Origin: a phage
Direction: 5' to 3' (one strand)
NCBI GenBank assembly: GCA_023732985.1
Contig: GCA_023732985.1_3946.1
Length of the DNA stretch: 64,000 nucleotides
Shown: one piece after another, positions 9,132 through 51,770 of the stretch
Position numbering within the stretch: position 1 is the first letter of the stretch
How the letters are laid out: every line of letters starts with the position of its first letter
Made by a program: the position numbers and the translations under genes
Notes under the pieces: generated by a model
What the model was told of the DNA's origin: nothing
Database searches by the model: none
What the model saw: the letters and a program-made list of their open reading frames with translations, nothing else

Positions 9132-9503
9132 ATGAAGTGGCTAGAGGAAGCTTTTAAAAATAATATTGGTGCAATTGTAGTTGGTATTTTTAGTGTTATT
9201 GGGATGTATACCACTATGCAAGTCTCAAGTGGTAAGCAGGAAGTGTCTGTCACAACAAAGTTACAGCAGCTAGATAATTATTCCAAAAGTAACTATTCAG
9301 CTATTCGTGATTTACAGTCTGACATGAGATTGATTCAGCTAGGGATGGAGAACCAGAAAGTTCAGTTAGAGAATGTTAAGGGTGAAAACGCAAAACTTAC
9401 CAAAACCCTTGATAAATTCTCTGACAGTGTGAACAATCTGGCTCAATCAGTATCAGCCTTGCAAGCTATTACTGAAAAGAACACAAAGAATACTGAAAAA
9501 TAA
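9132..9503 (+). CDS. hypothetical membrane-anchored coiled-coil protein
   Basis: N-terminal hydrophobic segment IGAIVVGIFSVIGMY followed by heptad-like polar sequence. Confidence 0.3.
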   Translation: MKWLEEAFKNNIGAIVVGIFSVIGMYTTMQVSSGKQEVSVTTKLQQLDNYSKSNYSAIRDLQSDMRLIQLGMENQKVQLENVKGENAKLTKTLDKFSDSVNNLAQSVSALQAITEKNTKNTEK

Positions 9504-9540: not shown

Positions 9541-10440
9541 TTACTTACCTACTGACAGAGGTGCTTCAATCTTTCCTGCATGTTGGTAGTTGTAAATGCC
9601 ACCAATAAAATCACTTGCAGTAAGGTGTTTTAGGTCACTTAGTGTGTTAAGTGGTACACCAATCTCAAAAGTAGGTGCATGGAACTCTTCATTGTTCATC
9701 AGTTCATAAACCTGCTTCATATGGTTCTGATAAATCTGGGTATCCCCAAAGACACCTATCAAGTACCGTGGAGTGTATCCAGTCATCTTACAAAGAACTT
9801 CTAAGATGAAACCATAAGACGCAATATTAAACGGAAGTCCTAAAAAGGTGTCTACTGAACGTTGATACCACTGTAAGTCAACTTCACCCTCATTAGTGAT
9901 ATAAATCTGAAACAGAACATGACAAGGTGCTAAAGCCATTGAGTTTGCTGCAATATCTGCTGCATTCCAAGCATTAACAAGCATGTAACGGTCTGTAATA
10001 TCACCCTTCATCTTCGTTACTAAGGTCTCTAACTGGTCTACAACACAACCATTATGACCTTCAAAGTTTCTCCACTGAACCCCATAGATTCTCCCACCTG
10101 CATCTTCTAACCAATCTTGTTCAGAAGAATAATTAGAACTTAACCAGCGTTTAAAATCATCTGACCAGATAGTCCAGCGTTCTCCGTCATTTTCATCCCA
10201 AGTACGGTAACGAAGTTCACCCAGCTTATTCTCACCATTCAGGAACCATAAAGCCTCCCCAATAACTTGCCGTGTAAACACCTGTTTAGATGTTAAGAGC
10301 GGGAAACCAGTCCTCATATCAAAACGAAACTGAGGTGGAGCAAAAGCAGAGATAACATCTCCAGTTCGTGTAGTACGCAGTTCACCAACGGATAAAACAT
10401 GGTTCAGGATATTTTTGTAACTTGTATCTGCTTGTGACAT
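9541..10440 (-). CDS. thyA: thymidylate synthase
   Basis: Conserved TS motifs in translation: DRTGTG-like RTTRTGD, active-site LAPCHVLFQ, RSVDTFLGLPFNIASY. Confidence 0.9.
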   Translation of the reverse strand: MSQADTSYKNILNHVLSVGELRTTRTGDVISAFAPPQFRFDMRTGFPLLTSKQVFTRQVIGEALWFLNGENKLGELRYRTWDENDGERWTIWSDDFKRWLSSNYSSEQDWLEDAGGRIYGVQWRNFEGHNGCVVDQLETLVTKMKGDITDRYMLVNAWNAADIAANSMALAPCHVLFQIYITNEGEVDLQWYQRSVDTFLGLPFNIASYGFILEVLCKMTGYTPRYLIGVFGDTQIYQNHMKQVYELMNNEEFHAPTFEIGVPLNTLSDLKHLTASDFIGGIYNYQHAGKIEAPLSVGK

Positions 10441-12134: not shown

Positions 12135-12464
12135 TTAGTCTGCCAACCTTAAATTGAAATTAACACCAAATTTTTCACATACTTCCAACATATACTCAAG
12201 GGAAACATTACCAGTGAGGTGGATTATGTTGGATACACGAGCCTGAGAGATACCACAAATTTTAGCAACTTGCTCTTGAGAAAGACCTCTGGATTTAATC
12301 TCTCTCTTAAAACGATGTGCAACGAAGTCTCTCATTTCGTCTACATCCATTGGACAAATATAACTCTCCATTTCAGCCTCTCTATCAGCCTCCCAATCAT
12401 CTTGTGGGGCATAAGGGTCAAAAACCTCATTCATCTTTCTTCTTCCGTTTGCGTGAAGTGTCAA
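12135..12464 (-). CDS. putative helix-turn-helix DNA-binding protein
   Basis: C-terminal LSQEQVAKICGISQARVSNI resembles XRE-type HTH. Confidence 0.5.
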   Translation of the reverse strand: MTLHANGRRKMNEVFDPYAPQDDWEADREAEMESYICPMDVDEMRDFVAHRFKREIKSRGLSQEQVAKICGISQARVSNIIHLTGNVSLEYMLEVCEKFGVNFNLRLAD

Positions 12465-42893: not shown

Positions 42894-45260
42894 ATGCGCA
42901 TGGTAAATGACCACGCAGAAGTGATTAAGAGTTCAACTTCTTTAGAGACGTCTCAAGCACAGATTACAATGACACCTGAGATGTTCAGCCTTTTGAGTTC
43001 TGGTGTATATACCTTTAAAGAAAGGGCAGTGATTCGTGAACTGTCATGTAACGCAGTAGATGCTCAGAAAGAAGCTGGAAAAGAGAACATCCCGTTCCAT
43101 GTGCATTTACCTACTCGTTTTGAGCCTTACTTTGAAGTTCGTGATTTTGGAACTGGATTGACTCATGATAAAGTTATGAGTTTGTACCTAAACTACGGGG
43201 CTTCTACGAAGAATGACTCTAATGACTACATTGGTGCAATGGGTATCGGCTCAAAATCACCATTTGCAATTGCTCAGTCATTCACAGTGTCTAGCTATGT
43301 TGATGGTGTTGTTAATAAGTACTCTGTTTATCTTGAGAATGGTATCCCTCAAGTAACTAAGCTGACCACTAACCCAACAAAAGAACCTAATGGTTTAGCT
43401 GTACGTGTGGCAGTTGCTGACCACCGTATCTCAAAGTTCTTTGAAGAAGCTGGAAATGTGTACTCATACTTCACTGTAAAACCAGAAAGTAATATTGAGT
43501 ACGACGATGTATTAGCAGACATGAACGTCATTGCCCGTGAAGAAGGTGTTTACGATGCCATGATTCATAAGCAAAGCTGGCGTTCTAGTGGTAACAGGAC
43601 AGAGTTTAATGTGGTGATGGGTAATATTGCCTATCCAGTGAACATGGAAGCATTACTTGGTGATGATTTCTTCAAAGTCTTGCCAGAGTTTTTCCGTAGG
43701 AGCGTAGACCTTGTAAACATCTACATGCCTATTGGTTCAGTTGCTATAGCAGCTTCTCGTGAAGCATTGCAGATGAATGATACGACAAAAAATGTTATCA
43801 TTGAGGCTACCAAAAAGATAACTGAAGCAATTACAAAGGATGTTATCAAGAAAGTTAATAGCCAACCTACACTCATGGATGCTGCACAGGCTTATGCAGA
43901 GCTACGTTTGAACTCACGAGAGATGTTTAATGCTGTGTGTCCAAAGCTAGAGTGGGGAGGCATTAAGCTTGATTCTCTGGAAGAAGAATTGTTAAACATT
44001 CGTCGTGGAATTATCTACGCAGAAGACGGCTCAGTCATTTATGAACGTGACGGTAAAGGCAATATTAAGGTTGATAGGAACGGGAACAATATCCCTAAAG
44101 TAGATTATCTTTATGACCCAGTTGCTTATGTCAAGTTCAACTCTTTAGAGAGTAAGATTCGTGCAACAGCACTTTCCTACACTCAAGAGGCAAGCATGTT
44201 CAATATCTTTGGTGCAATGCGTAAAAGCCAAATTGAACAGTTTTTGTTCGTGATTAATGACCGTCGCAATAAAAATGGTACTGAGAAGACTGTAGGACGC
44301 AATCAAATTTTGCGTGGTGCATGTCGAGACTACGCCAGTGAGTCAAATCTGTTTCACAGATACAATGGTATTGTCTTTGTATTCTCGACTGAAAAAGAGT
44401 TAGATGATTTAATCAATCTACACAAACTTGATAAAAGCTTGTTAAAGATTGTGAAGATGTCTGATAAGGAACATCACTATCAGCGTAAAGAAGCTGTAAG
44501 AGGTGTTGTAAAACTCTGGAAAGCTGTTCCAGCAGAAGGTGTAGCTTCCTATAAAGAGGTTTCAGAGGACTTAGATACGATTGAAGAGCCTCAGCTTTAT
44601 ATTAAGGCAGTAGGCGACACAGTTGATGGCGAATGTTTTTGCTCATCTCCAGAAGATGTAGCTAAGTCAGTTGCCAATGTCATTGGAAAGAAAGTATATG
44701 TTTTCCGAAAAGCAAATTGGAAAAAGATACCAGAAGACTGGATTGAAGTAGATGAGAAGCTCTTGAACGACAGCTTAACTGATGTTCATTGGATTAACCA
44801 TAACAGGTATATGACACGCATCTACATGGATGGTGTCCTCGACCTTACAAGCAGTTGGATTATTGCCAGAAACTTTACGTTCAATAACAGGAAGATTTCT
44901 CGCGGGTATTGTTATTCAAGGGATACTATTAAGACAATCTTCTTAGAAGGGAATGAAGATGCTGTTGAGGCAATGTTCGGTAAGATTCAGTATGTGGCTG
45001 CACCGTTTGCATACACTTACACTATCAGTGTTCTTCAGGATTTGAAGTCATGCCTTGATAATGACACAAAACTGTACAAAAAGATTAAAAAAGCAGGTGA
45101 CCGCATGGTCATTAAGCTGACAAACTATCTTTCAAAAAGAAAACAAGAAAACTTCTTGCTTTCACACTTAGATTGGAATAAAGTGTCACCCATCGAAGTG
45201 AGTAAGTTCTTAGGCTTTGATGTGAAGTGTGTTCCAGAAGGGACTACAATTTACGATTAA
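42894..45260 (+). CDS. rIIA: rIIA-like protein (GHKL-ATPase-like N-terminus)
   Basis: N-terminal ELSCNAVDA and DFGTGL resemble GHKL ATPase N and G1 boxes as in T4 rIIA; large size; followed by rIIB-sized gene. Confidence 0.65.
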   Translation: MRMVNDHAEVIKSSTSLETSQAQITMTPEMFSLLSSGVYTFKERAVIRELSCNAVDAQKEAGKENIPFHVHLPTRFEPYFEVRDFGTGLTHDKVMSLYLNYGASTKNDSNDYIGAMGIGSKSPFAIAQSFTVSSYVDGVVNKYSVYLENGIPQVTKLTTNPTKEPNGLAVRVAVADHRISKFFEEAGNVYSYFTVKPESNIEYDDVLADMNVIAREEGVYDAMIHKQSWRSSGNRTEFNVVMGNIAYPVNMEALLGDDFFKVLPEFFRRSVDLVNIYMPIGSVAIAASREALQMNDTTKNVIIEATKKITEAITKDVIKKVNSQPTLMDAAQAYAELRLNSREMFNAVCPKLEWGGIKLDSLEEELLNIRRGIIYAEDGSVIYERDGKGNIKVDRNGNNIPKVDYLYDPVAYVKFNSLESKIRATALSYTQEASMFNIFGAMRKSQIEQFLFVINDRRNKNGTEKTVGRNQILRGACRDYASESNLFHRYNGIVFVFSTEKELDDLINLHKLDKSLLKIVKMSDKEHHYQRKEAVRGVVKLWKAVPAEGVASYKEVSEDLDTIEEPQLYIKAVGDTVDGECFCSSPEDVAKSVANVIGKKVYVFRKANWKKIPEDWIEVDEKLLNDSLTDVHWINHNRYMTRIYMDGVLDLTSSWIIARNFTFNNRKISRGYCYSRDTIKTIFLEGNEDAVEAMFGKIQYVAAPFAYTYTISVLQDLKSCLDNDTKLYKKIKKAGDRMVIKLTNYLSKRKQENFLLSHLDWNKVSPIEVSKFLGFDVKCVPEGTTIYD

Positions 45261-45339: not shown

Positions 45340-46449
45340 ATGACTACTAAAACTAAAGCACAGATTGACGCAGAAATTTACAAACTGGTTAAAGAAGGTA
45401 AGCTGACTAAAACAGCTATTGCACAGAAATTTAATACTTCAACCCGTTCAGTTGGTCGTGCTGTAGAGCGTCATGAAGCAACCTTAAAAGGGAATAAGAA
45501 GGCGACTTCTACACCAGCTACGAAAACTTTGAAGCAAGTTGCTAAGACCTTTAAGAAGAAAGCTGGCAAACCAGTTGAAAAGGCTGTTAAAGAGTCTGTA
45601 CAGAAAGTTCCGGTAAATAAACTGCACGAAGCTATGCAGAAAGATGACAAGATTGAGTACATGATTACTGGTGATTCTGTAATTATGACTTATGGTTCAG
45701 AATCTGAAATTGTTGAGTCTACTCATCCGAACTATCAAGAGATTGTAGTTCATGTTGTGAAAGGTGAGTTCAAGAAAGCATTTGAACTGATGAACATTCG
45801 TAAGTCTATCGAAAACTTCACTCAGGGTGCTATCACAATCAAAGGCGACAAGCTATTCTACGGTGCTGTTGAGATGCGTTCTACTCTGGTTGACCGTATT
45901 CTTCACATGATGAAAACTGGCGATAAAGGTTTTGAACGACTTGTAATGTTCTTCGAAAAACTGATGGAAAACCCATCTAAAGATTCTGTAGAACAACTTT
46001 GGGGATTTGTATCTCACCTTGATGTTGAAATTGATGAAGAAGGCTACATCATTGGTTGGAAGAAAGTCTCTACTCGTGAAGGCAAGCTGGTTGACTCTCA
46101 CACCTACAAAGTGCCTAATGATTTGGGTAACATTGTAGAAATGCCACGTTGGATGGTTGATAATAACCGTAACGTAACTTGCTCTCAAGGTCTTCATGTT
46201 GGTGCTTGGGATTATGTTCGTTGCTTCTCAGGTGATACAATCCTGAAGGTTCGCGTACATCCACGAGATGTTGTATCTGTTCCAACTGATTACAATGATA
46301 TGAAGATGCGTTCCTCTCGTTATGAAGTTGCAGCAATCGTTGATAATCAACGTAAAGTGCTGGAAGCATGGGACGGTAAGACTGAAGCTTTGCATGTCAT
46401 CGTTGGCACTGCTGGTGAACTCATCTCTCAACGTAAACGTGAAATCTAA
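45340..46449 (+). CDS. putative rIIB-like protein
   Basis: Position after rIIA-like gene; no diagnostic motif. Confidence 0.35.
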   Translation: MTTKTKAQIDAEIYKLVKEGKLTKTAIAQKFNTSTRSVGRAVERHEATLKGNKKATSTPATKTLKQVAKTFKKKAGKPVEKAVKESVQKVPVNKLHEAMQKDDKIEYMITGDSVIMTYGSESEIVESTHPNYQEIVVHVVKGEFKKAFELMNIRKSIENFTQGAITIKGDKLFYGAVEMRSTLVDRILHMMKTGDKGFERLVMFFEKLMENPSKDSVEQLWGFVSHLDVEIDEEGYIIGWKKVSTREGKLVDSHTYKVPNDLGNIVEMPRWMVDNNRNVTCSQGLHVGAWDYVRCFSGDTILKVRVHPRDVVSVPTDYNDMKMRSSRYEVAAIVDNQRKVLEAWDGKTEALHVIVGTAGELISQRKREI

Positions 46450-46464
46450 TAAGTAATTTCTTAA

Positions 46465-46489
46465 AAGGCTGCTTCGGCGGCCTTTTTTA
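46465..46489 (+). terminator. intrinsic terminator
   Basis: GGCTGC-TTCG-GCGGCC followed by TTTTTT. Confidence 0.55.
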
Positions 46490-46490
46490 T

Positions 46491-46520
46491 TTGTATTTTG
46501 TGCAGAGTGCTGTATAATTG
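46491..46520 (+). promoter_or_regulatory. promoter-like motif TTTGTGCAG-N3-GCTGTATAAT
   Basis: TATAAT hexamer at 46515-46520 preceded by conserved TTTGTGCAG; near-identical copy at 50990-51010. Confidence 0.45.
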
Positions 46521-46549: not shown

Positions 46550-47098
46550 ATGAAGAAATTGATTCTAGGTTTGTGCTTAATGTTTACAGCACACTTATCT
46601 TATGCAGTTGACTGCCCAGAGCTATCAATTAGCCAAAAAGTAAACATGTTAAAAGCTTACCAGTATGGTGAGAATAACATGGGTAAAGGTTGGGGTATCA
46701 CTCTAGCAGCTATAGCCTTACAAGAGTCAGAGTTAGGTCTGAAGGTAGAAAATAAAAAGACCCATGACTACGGTATCTTCCAGAATCACTTGAAGACTGT
46801 TGTAAAGCGTAACAAAATTAGTCCTAATGTTGCTAAAAAGAAACTCTTAAAAGATTTTGACTATGCCGCAAAAGAAACACATAAAGAGCTTGAGTTTTGG
46901 ACGAAGGTGCATGGTCACCCAAAGTCGAAGAAGACTTTACAAAAAGTTTTAGCATCATATAATGCTGGGTATTCGTACAGAATCCCTAAAGCTAAGAAAT
47001 ATTCTCAAGATGTCTATAACAACATGAAAGTTATTGCTCAATGTGAATTTGCAACAAACATTTCTAAGGTAAACCATGAAAAAATTAAAAAAGTCTGA
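46550..47098 (+). CDS. putative secreted lytic transglycosylase-like protein
   Basis: Signal peptide MKKLILGLCLMFTAHLSYA; AIALQESELG ... YGIFQ resembles SLT-domain ES...GLMQ motifs. Confidence 0.4.
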   Translation: MKKLILGLCLMFTAHLSYAVDCPELSISQKVNMLKAYQYGENNMGKGWGITLAAIALQESELGLKVENKKTHDYGIFQNHLKTVVKRNKISPNVAKKKLLKDFDYAAKETHKELEFWTKVHGHPKSKKTLQKVLASYNAGYSYRIPKAKKYSQDVYNNMKVIAQCEFATNISKVNHEKIKKV

Positions 47099-48258: not shown

Positions 48259-48281
48259 AGGCTCCTTCGGGAGCCTTTTTC
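48259..48281 (+). terminator. intrinsic terminator
   Basis: AGGCTCC-TTCG-GGAGCCT followed by TTTTT. Confidence 0.6.
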
Positions 48282-48299
48282 ATTTCAGGAGATTGTTAA

Positions 48300-50121: not shown

Positions 50122-50901
50122 ATGGGTATTGTAAAAGTTGTGAAAGGTAACTTACTAGCTGCCTTCAAAAACACAGACATTGAGTTAATTGCTCATGGTT
50201 GCAACTGCCGTAACCTCATGGGTGCTGGAATCGCTCAAAAAATTGCTAAGATTTTCCCAAAAGCTGAAGAAGCTGACCGGAAATTCCATAAAAAGTTTGG
50301 CTACAGCGCTCATGATATCGGATACCAGATGGTTGGTGAGGTGTCACATGCTCGAACGGAGTATGGTTACATTTTTAACCTATATACACAGTTGGATGTT
50401 GGGAAGTGTGCATCATACCGATACTTAGTGGAGTCACTAGAAAAACTCCGTAAATTTTGCTGGATGCACAACATTCGTAAGATTGGTTTACCCATGATTG
50501 GTGCAGGTATCGGTGGCTTAGACGCACAAGCTGTGAAAAGCCTCATTAATAGCGTTATGTACAACGTTGATGTGTACCTATACGTCTATGATGAAGCAAT
50601 GGCAACTGTAGTTACCCCTAAGTATGCCACCTCAGCACCACAATTCTATGATGGTGTCGTGCTAAGTGACGGTAAATCTAACCATGTTACCCTCTATCAG
50701 CTTGTTGATGGTAAGGTCGAGGCTAGTTACCCTCTGGTTAGTGAGATGGGTATGTGTAATAGTGAAATGTTCTCAATTGACCCATTTGGTAGATACGAAG
50801 GGGTGTTCTTTGATAACTACCCAGCAGCATACATCTACACAACAAATCAGGATGAAGTTCACTACTTGCTGTATTCTAAAAAGTTCAAATTCATAAACTG
50901 A
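50122..50901 (+). CDS. macro-domain (ADP-ribose binding / hydrolase-like) protein
   Basis: IAHGCNCRNLMGAGIAQKIAKIFP and IGLPMIGAGIGGLD resemble the two glycine-rich macro-domain signature segments; ~100 aa C-terminal extension. Confidence 0.55.
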   Translation: MGIVKVVKGNLLAAFKNTDIELIAHGCNCRNLMGAGIAQKIAKIFPKAEEADRKFHKKFGYSAHDIGYQMVGEVSHARTEYGYIFNLYTQLDVGKCASYRYLVESLEKLRKFCWMHNIRKIGLPMIGAGIGGLDAQAVKSLINSVMYNVDVYLYVYDEAMATVVTPKYATSAPQFYDGVVLSDGKSNHVTLYQLVDGKVEASYPLVSEMGMCNSEMFSIDPFGRYEGVFFDNYPAAYIYTTNQDEVHYLLYSKKFKFIN

Positions 50902-50980
50902 TTAGTGCTTCACAGCACCTATAATTAATCTAAAAAGGCCGCCTAACCCATTGAAAAATTTAAGGTAAGGTGGTCTTTTT

Positions 50981-51123
50981 CATTTTCAATTTGTGCAGGT
51001 AGCTGTATAGGTCTGCACAGGTGTCTCAAAAAATCTCATCGCCGGATAGAAAAATCATTTTCAAAACGTGCAGACCCCGCTCAGGTCGGGCAAGAAAAAT
51101 CATTTTAGAATCGTGCAGGTAGG
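50981..51123 (+). repeat. three tandem copies of (AAAAAT)CATTTT-N2-AA-N2-GTGCAG motif
   Basis: Copies at 50981-51000 (with GCTGTATAGG, matching 46497-46520), 51051-51077 and 51095-51123. Confidence 0.5.
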
Positions 51124-51145: not shown

Positions 51146-51176
51146 CCCCTCTCCCCCTCTTACTCCCCCTCTCCCC
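51146..51176. other. polypyrimidine tract CCCCTCTCCCCCTCTTACTCCCCCTCTCCCC (G-quadruplex motif on minus strand)
   Basis: Four C-runs of 4-5 separated by 3-7 nt in a ~39% GC genome. Confidence 0.5.
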
Positions 51177-51297
51177 AAAAGTCAAGAGAAAAATTTGTAG
51201 TGGATTGAAAAATAATTCTTGATTTGTGTTTTGTTTTGTGGTAGTCGTGCGCGCCCGTTCATTTCCCAACCTTACAAAAAATATTTAATAAAAACCG

Positions 51298-51326
51298 TTG
51301 ACACGCCAAACAAGTTTACGTACTAT
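51298..51326 (+). promoter_or_regulatory. sigma70-like promoter (TTGACA-17-TACTAT) at head of cassette array
   Basis: -35 TTGACA 51298-51303, 17 bp spacer, -10 TACTAT 51321-51326, AT-rich upstream tract. Confidence 0.5.
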
Positions 51327-51375: not shown

Positions 51376-51567
51376 ATGGCATCAAGAAAAATCAAAGTCG
51401 GTGATGAGGTTAACGTTAAGTATGAGCACTCTCATAAAATGTTAACTATTCGCTCTTACAAGGTTTATCAGGTGGAAGCTATCCACGAAGACGGTACATT
51501 TTCCCTAAAAGGACATAGCGAACGTTTCCCTGCTGAATTGTTCGAAAAATGGAGTACTAAAAAATGA
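51376..51567 (+). CDS. hypothetical small protein, cassette array ORF 1
   Basis: ORF preceded by conserved CCTAAACTGGAGAATCTAAAAATG initiation region. Confidence 0.45.
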   Translation: MASRKIKVGDEVNVKYEHSHKMLTIRSYKVYQVEAIHEDGTFSLKGHSERFPAELFEKWSTKK

Positions 51568-51770
51568 TTTACAGCCGTGAATTGATGGTTACAACTAACG
51601 TTAACACAAAGGTAAAACGTTTTTACATGCAAATCTGTGGCGTATGGTCCAGAATATCAGAAGCCGACTATTGCAACTATGTAGAAACGGCAATCAACTC
51701 GAATTGCTACCTTACAAGAAACACTAAGAATTTTACAAGGCAGACAGCGATTTACTACTACGATAAATAA
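51564..51770 (+). CDS. hypothetical small protein, cassette array ORF 2
   Basis: 68 aa ORF translationally coupled to ORF 1. Confidence 0.35.
   Translation: MIYSRELMVTTNVNTKVKRFYMQICGVWSRISEADYCNYVETAINSNCYLTRNTKNFTRQTAIYYYDK

Follow-up and report, generated by a model that had tools for sequence, protein, structure and literature searches.

What is the function of a short bipartite sequence that recurs behind two transcription terminators of a Felix O1-like phage, once alone and once as a tandem array? The DNA analyzed here (the window) is a stretch of 64,000 nucleotides belonging to a Felixounavirus (Felix O1-like myophage), and more than 200 Felix O1-like phages (Ounavirinae) match it at approximately 85-94% identity. 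An initial annotation had suggested that the recurring sequence may be a phage-specific promoter class or an activator binding site. The gene map was built by comparison with the annotated records of Felix O1, JN01, and ASO1A, and includes the following features:

42894-45260: rIIA, named from annotated relatives
45340-46449: rIIB, named from annotated relatives
3' of rIIB: gene cluster from the Vs.1/SLT-like gene gp3 (46550) to the macro-domain phosphatase gene (50122-50901)
between the macro-domain phosphatase gene and the early genes: conserved non-coding region of 475 nt
51376 to approximately 57800 (51376-57787): early block of approximately 20 small genes without known function, each served by a sigma70 promoter of its own

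The phage is virulent, uses the host RNA polymerase, and carries T4-like neighbours (rIIA/rIIB, Vs.1, and PseT), and a T7-like replisome (primase/helicase, family-A polymerase, and exonuclease) is annotated in its relatives. The Felix O1 genome paper lists two terminators (t2 and t13) and other repeats, the bipartite motif being absent from that list, and states that the temporal control of transcription is unknown. In the literature on the Felix O1-like group, we found no TSS, RNA-seq, replication-origin, footprint, or genetic data for this region, and the bipartite element appears to be undescribed. Within the early block (51766-57550), approximately ten cassettes place a stem-loop (GGGGCTTA...TAAGCCCC) between a -35 TTTACA and a -10 TAAAGT, recalling the promoter-stem-loop cassettes of T4-type phages; a conserved leader with a ribosome-binding site (TCCTAAACTGGAGATTC) is present in nine copies, and the record of Mooglevirus Mordin annotates this 14-nt leader as repeat_region. 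Among the database records, Staphylococcus phage SA1 (GU169904.1) contains Felix O1-like DNA (89% identity over 736 nt) although deposited as a Staphylococcus phage, and therefore looks chimeric.

The unit shared by the two sites is bipartite, asymmetric, and approximately 25 bp long, W5-TCATTTT-N6-GTGCA(GG)TAG, one unit being exemplified by the 30-mer GAAAAATCATTTTCAAAACGTGCAGGTAGG. The shared 20-nt core that first drew attention is exact: the 20-mer TTTGTGCAG-N3-GCTGTATA occurs at 46497-46516 and 50990-51009 and nowhere else in the 64 kb, even with three mismatches allowed, at which level 0.28 copies are expected and at least two copies occurred in 3 of 100 shuffles. Both 20-mers follow rho-independent terminators with CTTTTT(T/C)ATTT tails, published in Felix O1 as t2 and t13, and the likeness of their left flanks is partly due to these tails. 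The tandem CATTTT..GTGCAG copies noticed at the same time were also recovered, with TCATTTT-N6-GTGCAG exact at 50980, 51055, and 51100, all on the plus strand, and a degenerate copy at 46487; for its 13 specified bases, arithmetic gives approximately 0.002 chance exact matches in 128 kb. By itself, GTGCAG shows no enrichment in the window (30 copies, 27.9 expected), so that the composite motif and the way it clusters carry the signal. With the first unit, an inverted CTGCAC at 51013-51018 makes up TGTGCAG-N14-CTGCACA.

A relaxed pattern, ATTT-N7-GTGCA, gave four copies in the window, five each in JN01 and Felix O1, and four in the first 45 kb of Erwinia phage phiEa21-4, every one of them on the plus strand and confined to the loci behind rIIB and behind the phosphatase gene. 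In the complete genomes of Felix O1 and JN01, one copy stands behind the rIIB terminator, four stand in tandem (R1-R4) behind the phosphatase terminator, and none occurs elsewhere, and this genome-wide restriction to two loci argues against the promoter class that had been proposed. Matches to a two-unit pattern were Ounavirinae-sized contigs in 30 of 31 cases in IMG/VR and Ounavirinae-like contigs in 15 of 44 cases in metagenomes; in bacterial genomes, none of the 14 matches was phage-like, and host or prophage copies were not found.

The region behind the phosphatase gene is built, from left to right, of a terminator, the array units, a C-rich tract, an AT-rich block, a strong promoter, and a conserved leader with a ribosome-binding site, as follows in the window:

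50937-50986, plus strand: macro-domain phosphatase terminator, a long hairpin with G-U pairs whose T-tail runs into R1
50975-51002, plus strand: array unit R1, CTTTT-TCATTTT-CAATTT-GTGCAGGTAG, with its core at 50980-50998
51003-51019, plus strand: lineage-specific R1 tail CTGTATAGG, with a -10-like TATAGG at 51006-51011 and an inverted core CTGCACA at 51013-51019
51050-51073, plus strand: array unit R3, AAAAA-TCATTTT-CAAAAC-GTGCAG
51095-51122, plus strand: array unit R4, AAAAA-TCATTTT-AGAATC-GTGCAGGTAG, then GTTTT-TATAGAG
51146-51176, plus strand: C-rich tract CCCC-TCT-CCCCC-TCTTACT-CCCCC-TCT-CCCC, within the GC-richest 100 nt of the window (top 0.01%)
51177-51236, no strand assigned: conserved AT-rich block AAAAGTCAAGAGAAAAATTTGTAG..AAAAATAATTCTTGA with inverted arms of 6-7 bp
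51298-51326, plus strand: strong sigma70 early promoter TTGACA-N17-TACTAT (13.3 bits), serving the first small early gene (ATG at 51376)

ASO1A carries an annotation for the orthologue of the phosphatase terminator, which was published for Felix O1 as t13, and the G-U pairs of its hairpin make it specific to the plus strand. The C-rich tract is kept in Felix O1, Mooglevirus, and phiEa21-4, with a G-rich tract on the plus strand instead in phages of the JN01 type. Read on the minus strand, the tract of the window (GGGG-AGA-GGGGG-AGTAAGA-GGGGG-AGA-GGGG) fits a G-quadruplex motif. The AT-rich block is near-invariant in Felixounavirus and Mooglevirus and falls in the lowest 0.4-0.6% of the window for GC content (stretches of 40-60 nt), and the early promoter is annotated in ASO1A and kept in all genera. 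Block by block, the whole 475-nt region is kept across genera, while the genes on either side have been exchanged.

Relatives carry the core motif at the orthologous positions, and its absence there, which would have counted against the proposal of the initial annotation, was not observed. Four array units are found in 20 of 25 Ounavirinae loci and also in Mooglevirus Mordin, and three (R1, R3, and R4) in the lineage of the window, where the ancestral R2 and its CTCCAAAGAG element are replaced or missing; the breakpoint of this loss lies in the TCATTTT at 51055, so that many relatives align only from 51055 rightwards. Unit spacing is conserved across these loci (73-77, 39-41, and 45 nt), and TCATTT and GTGCAG are near-invariant in all 25, with N6 and the inter-unit DNA variable. 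At the same position, phiEa21-4 (Kolesnikvirus) has four compact units, TCATTTT-N6-GTGCATAG, spaced at 37, 37, and 39 nt, and a distant 88-kb contig (L136) has five units, with the order of macro-domain gene, array, and early gene preserved. At 620-1010 of the 88-kb contig (minus strand reading), approximately 150 nt of TTAACA repeats come directly after this five-unit array. Their resemblance to the terminal-repeat sequence of Felixounavirus may suggest that the array is connected with repeats of the terminal type.

At the other locus, the solitary copy is embedded in a predicted promoter, which we call P3:

46463-46496, plus strand: rho-independent terminator of rIIB with a T-rich tail (hairpin 46463-46486, 10-bp stem, T-run), orthologue of Felix O1 t2
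46487-46505, plus strand: solitary bipartite copy TTATTTG-N5-TGTGCAG, overlapping the -35 and spacer of P3
46491-46518, plus strand: predicted sigma70 promoter P3 of the gp3-to-macro-domain cluster, from a PWM scan and conservation

P3 consists of a -35 TTGTAT (46491-46496), a 16-nt spacer (46497-46512), and a -10 TATAAT (46513-46518), with an AGGAG ribosome-binding site and a start codon (ATG at 46550) approximately 30 nt 3' of it. It scores 8.5 bits with a simple PWM of our own, the 99.96th percentile of the window, and the block TTTGTGCAGAGTGCTG highlighted in the initial annotation is exactly its spacer. Across seven sequence variants from several genera, TTTTTTATTTG, TGTG(C/T)AG, and (G/A)TATAAT are kept, N5 and N6 being free at fixed length, and none of the seven departs from the TTG, the spacer length, or TATAAT. 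Of the motif copies in the window, only this one (46491-46518) combines a TTGACA-like -35 with a TATAAT-like -10 at a distance of 16-18 nt, the -10 having its A at -11 and its T at -7. Since TGTGCAG is constrained at -26 to -20, in a spacer that sigma70 mostly does not read, this DNA probably has a second reader, and the conserved blocks at about -38 to -20 point to the footprint of an extra factor. This agrees, for the copy at 46497, with the earlier proposal that the block sits where the activator boxes of phage middle promoters sit. Of the two -10-like hexamers singled out with it, TATAAT at 46513-46518 belongs to the highly plausible predicted promoter P3, whereas the TATAGG of the 50990 copy is specific to a lineage. 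In phiEa21-4, no copy of the motif was found behind rIIB.

The motif is asymmetric, strand-consistent, restricted to two loci, and fixed in at least four genera while its spacers drift, and the simplest account of such a pattern is the site of one DNA-binding protein. Our preferred reading, still tentative (probability approximately 0.45), is therefore that the element may be the recognition site of a single sequence-specific DNA-binding protein, serving as an operator at P3 and as an iteron-like array behind the phosphatase gene. From the sequence pattern, we infer that a protein binds these sites, that it is encoded by the phage, and what its binding would bring about. A phage-encoded factor is probable because the core differs (GTGCAGGTAG in one case, GTGCATAG in the other) between genera whose hosts share host factors, and because the 14 two-unit matches in bacterial genomes include no phage-like array copy.

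At P3, which would restart transcription behind the rIIB terminator, the predicted site covers the face from -38 to -20. A bound factor would gate RNA polymerase there, since the site overlaps the -35 and the spacer, either by repression or by activation with the factor replacing -35 recognition, and such gating would set the timing of the gp3-to-macro-domain gene cluster. Behind the terminator of that cluster, several molecules of the factor would be loaded side by side on the three to four tandem units, which do not themselves appear to be conserved sigma70 promoters. Approximately 180 nt separate the array from the nearest strong promoter, a distance too great for it to act as a simple operator. 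For the array, we favour a putative complex that would mark the boundary, or exert control, between the middle-type cluster and the block of early genes, and a role as a replication origin would be nearly as likely.

A binding protein was not recognised among approximately 40 proteins scanned against Pfam and PHROGs, which assigned no function to the neighbouring and early ones. The sole recognisable regulator among the 40, encoded far from both loci, is an HTH_3 protein of the Cro/C1 type (109 aa, 12135-12464, minus strand; Pfam E = 6e-10). Proteins of the HTH_3 type normally bind palindromes, and the asymmetry of the motif therefore counts against this protein as the binder. For the protein at 56614-57144, a second structure model had a lower confidence (pLDDT 74.6).

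Felix O1 and its relatives find wide use in the typing and biocontrol of Salmonella and E. coli. No other non-coding signal in the region is conserved as clearly as this motif, whose two sites bracket the gp3-to-macro-domain cluster and which provides a concrete bait sequence for pull-down of its putative binding protein. Additionally, if the array were an origin or a gate for early genes, phage engineers would be told which non-coding segment to leave intact.

The strongest competing explanation, which we regard as doubtful but worth serious attention, is that the array supplies the iterons of a replication origin, where initiators or a transcription complex would assemble on R1-R4, the AT-rich block would melt, and the T7-type primase-helicase and polymerase would load. 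The copy at P3 would then serve autoregulation or as a second site, in the manner of iteron plasmids, or act as a promoter-origin such as T4 oriF and oriG. Iterons are typically asymmetric direct repeats that all point the same way, and the array comprises at least three of these beside an AT-rich segment, with a GC-rich tract intervening. This succession of array, GC-richest 100 nt, and one of the most AT-rich stretches of 40-60 nt in the window, preserved as a unit amid exchanged neighbouring genes, is consistent with an origin, as are the T7-like replisome of the relatives and the strong promoter beside the region, given that T7-type origins consist of promoters and an AT-rich segment. However, the unit spacings (37-45 nt and 73-77 nt) do not keep the units in helical phase, cumulative GC skew tracks the orientation of the genes with no extremum at the array, the GC-rich tract flips strand between lineages, and the solitary copy lies in a promoter region of 100 nt with no AT-rich partner. 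In addition, no initiator-like protein was recognised among the approximately 40 proteins scanned, and no Rep, O, or DnaA-like domain among the neighbouring and early proteins, most of which are of unknown function. A paper locating the replication origin of a Felix O1-like phage was not found in the literature.

A combined view, about which we have considerable reservations, takes the array, the GC-rich tract, and the AT-rich block together as the cis-acting core of an unlocated function. The likeliest such function would be the origin of a T7-type replisome working with no phage RNA polymerase and, less likely, a T5-like pause or anchor for genome entry approximately 9% from the right end; a new phage DNA-binding protein would act on this core and also gate the promoter behind rIIB.

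A reading in line with the one first given to the locus, that each unit is a phage-specific middle-type promoter whose TTGTGCAG box is read by an activator or a modified RNA polymerase, with stacked promoters firing into the downstream genes, now seems unlikely. It draws support from P3, which has the required layout and looks functional, from TRTAGR or TANNNT-like hexamers after R1 and R4 in most genomes, from the R1 units of Felix O1 (TTTTCA-N17-TAGAGT, 8.0 bits) and Mordin (7.3 bits), and from the statement of the genome paper that the temporal control of transcription in Felix O1 is unknown. Against it stands, besides the presence of only two loci per genome, the behaviour of the tandem units, for which a promoter reading could not be sustained: a -10-like element is missing from R2 and R3, and across genera the units do not share a sigma70 register. 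In the window, a PWM scan found no plus-strand sigma70 site of at least 5 bits at R1 and no sigma70 site using the motif at R3 or R4, and the array units (50980-51123) contain no sigma70 hexamer pair 16-18 nt apart. The -10-like TRTAGR/TANNNT hexamers after R1 and R4 lack either A at -11 or T at -7, and their position relative to GTGCAG differs from unit to unit (+1, +7, or +9). At the GCTGTATAGG half of the 50990 copy, the window and one relative (L131) have TATAGG, four of the nearest relatives (L132, L173, L191, and L198) have TAGGGG, and another (L162) has TATAGA, and Felix O1 and JN01 have another sequence and spacing in its place. Moreover, phiEa21-4 has only approximately 10 nt between the halves, less than a sigma70 promoter requires, RNA polymerase cannot occupy all the units simultaneously at distances of 37-45 nt, and no phage sigma factor, RNA polymerase, or MotA/AsiA-like protein has been reported for Felix O1. 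R1 and R4, each followed by a weak -10-like TRTAGR, may nevertheless have some promoter activity.

Promoters on the opposite strand were also considered. In phiEa21-4 (contig L133, minus strand), TTGCCA-N17-TAAAAT (13 bits) lies within the array at 9330-9395, and TTGACG-N18-TATACT (13 bits) lies by the early promoter at approximately 9590-9630; either of these sigma70-like sites would direct transcription leftwards across the array, and neither is conserved in the enterobacterial genera. The spacing of TTGCCA-N17-TAAAAT is not kept in Felixounavirus or Mooglevirus, and a minus-strand promoter was therefore not taken as a conserved function.

The strong early promoter, several old contigs breaking at the array, and the overlapping ends (377 nt) of the KhF1 record had raised the suspicion of a genome end or packaging site. 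This was rejected, as the published 618-nt direct terminal repeat (DTR) of Felixounavirus UAB_69 aligns in full length to 58267-58861 of the window (86.8% identity), which puts it 7.15 kb rightwards of the array; the GE_vB_7A record stops at the position corresponding to 58857. The direct terminal repeats of Felixounaviruses are short, that of Pr103Blw measuring 581 bp. The DTR of the window, and with it the physical ends of the genome, lies at this place; it is full of TGTTAA/TTAACA-type repeats, and the genes on both sides are transcribed towards it. The KhF1 record (KT184313.1) is opened within the non-coding region of the array, and its first 130 nt are full of Ns.

With the DTR in this position, the array stands approximately 9% of the genome from the right end, and it could be imagined as a cis site like the iss of T5, pausing or anchoring the entering genome while the small early genes on the approximately 7.7 kb to the right end are expressed first. 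The first-step-transfer segment of T5 covers a similar 7.9% of the genome, and its boundary is marked by an untranslated region of conserved repeats (Davison, bioRxiv 10.1101/866236). The approximately 20 small genes in between, each with a sigma70 promoter, fit this picture, and the units of phiEa21-4 and the 88-kb contig resemble a DnaA box (TGTGCATAG of phiEa21-4 matches TGTGNAWAA at 8 of 9 positions). We nonetheless consider it very improbable, given that the array lies outside the terminal repeat and the T5 iss inside, that it has no paired DnaA boxes or large inverted repeats, that no A1/A2-like proteins were detected in the early block (51376-57787), and that no report of two-step injection was found for Felix O1-like phages. 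The unit of the window itself, TGTGCAGGT, matches the reverse complement of the DnaA consensus TT(A/T)TNCACA at only 6 of 9 positions, and a DnaA box was rejected for it.

Other identities were rejected as well. The consensus sequences of IHF, CRP, LexA, and sigma54 gave no match. A structured or known RNA had no Rfam match at E <= 1, and the folds were weaker than those of shuffled sequences (z-scores +1.48 and +0.99). On the minus strand of Felix O1, R4-R2 share a reading frame that would specify LHxLKM repeats, and the Mordin record has a CDS at this place. A coding repeat was nevertheless rejected because stop codons occur in all six frames of the array in four genomes and because the spacings found in other genera (41, 37, and 73 nt) are not divisible by 3. 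Finally, that the element has no function at all, being a chance likeness of terminator T-tails joined to neutral tandem duplications, is hardly credible: CTTTTT(C/T)ATTT tails do occur on several terminators, one of which (48259-48286) has no GTGCAG after it, but R2 and R4 keep TCATTTT with no hairpin before them, the motif blocks are invariant across four genera and hosts in which the spacers have diverged, and unit count and spacing are preserved.

The preferred reading, a predicted binding site used at a promoter and in an array, can be compared with several known systems. The CII-activated promoters of lambda carry TTGC-N6-TTGC straddling the -35; they are likewise bipartite, with a 6-nt gap, over the -35 region of a promoter, but the halves of the present element are unlike each other, no CII homologue was found, and CII uses no arrays. 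The middle promoters of T4 have a MotA box centred at -30 and a sigma70 -10, and at oriF and oriG a promoter of this kind has an unwinding element behind it. Like these MotA/AsiA promoters, P3 has a non-sigma70 block upstream of a good -10, at approximately -38 to -20. In contrast, the MotA box, with the consensus (a/t)(a/t)(a/t)TGCTT(t/c)A, is unrelated in sequence to the units and absent from them, P3 keeps a usable TTG at -35, the loci number two rather than dozens, and tandem arrays are not a feature of MotA promoters. Neither MotA nor AsiA was found in the 40 proteins scanned, and neither is reported for Felix O1.

The iss of T5 is likewise a conserved, repeat-rich, untranslated region approximately 8-9% from a genome end, bounding small early genes and having variable coding neighbours, although the present array, with its four direct repeats, is far simpler. 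The primary origin of T7 (phi1.1A/B with an AT-rich region) shares with the locus a T7-type primase-helicase, polymerase, and exonuclease and closely spaced, repeated promoter-like units upstream of an AT-rich block; it differs in that the units here cannot be shown to be promoters, that a phage RNA polymerase is lacking, and that a GC-rich tract lies between. In iteron origins (lambda ori, P1 oriR, and F/R6K/pPS10), units are approximately 22 nt apart as opposed to 37-45 nt here, and a Rep/O-like initiator is used, none having been found in the present phage, whose replisome is T7-like; T7 itself uses no initiator. Like the array, however, these origins have three to five asymmetric repeats in one orientation beside an AT-rich segment, and the copy at the promoter for Rep autoregulation in iteron plasmids may be likened to the extra copy at P3.
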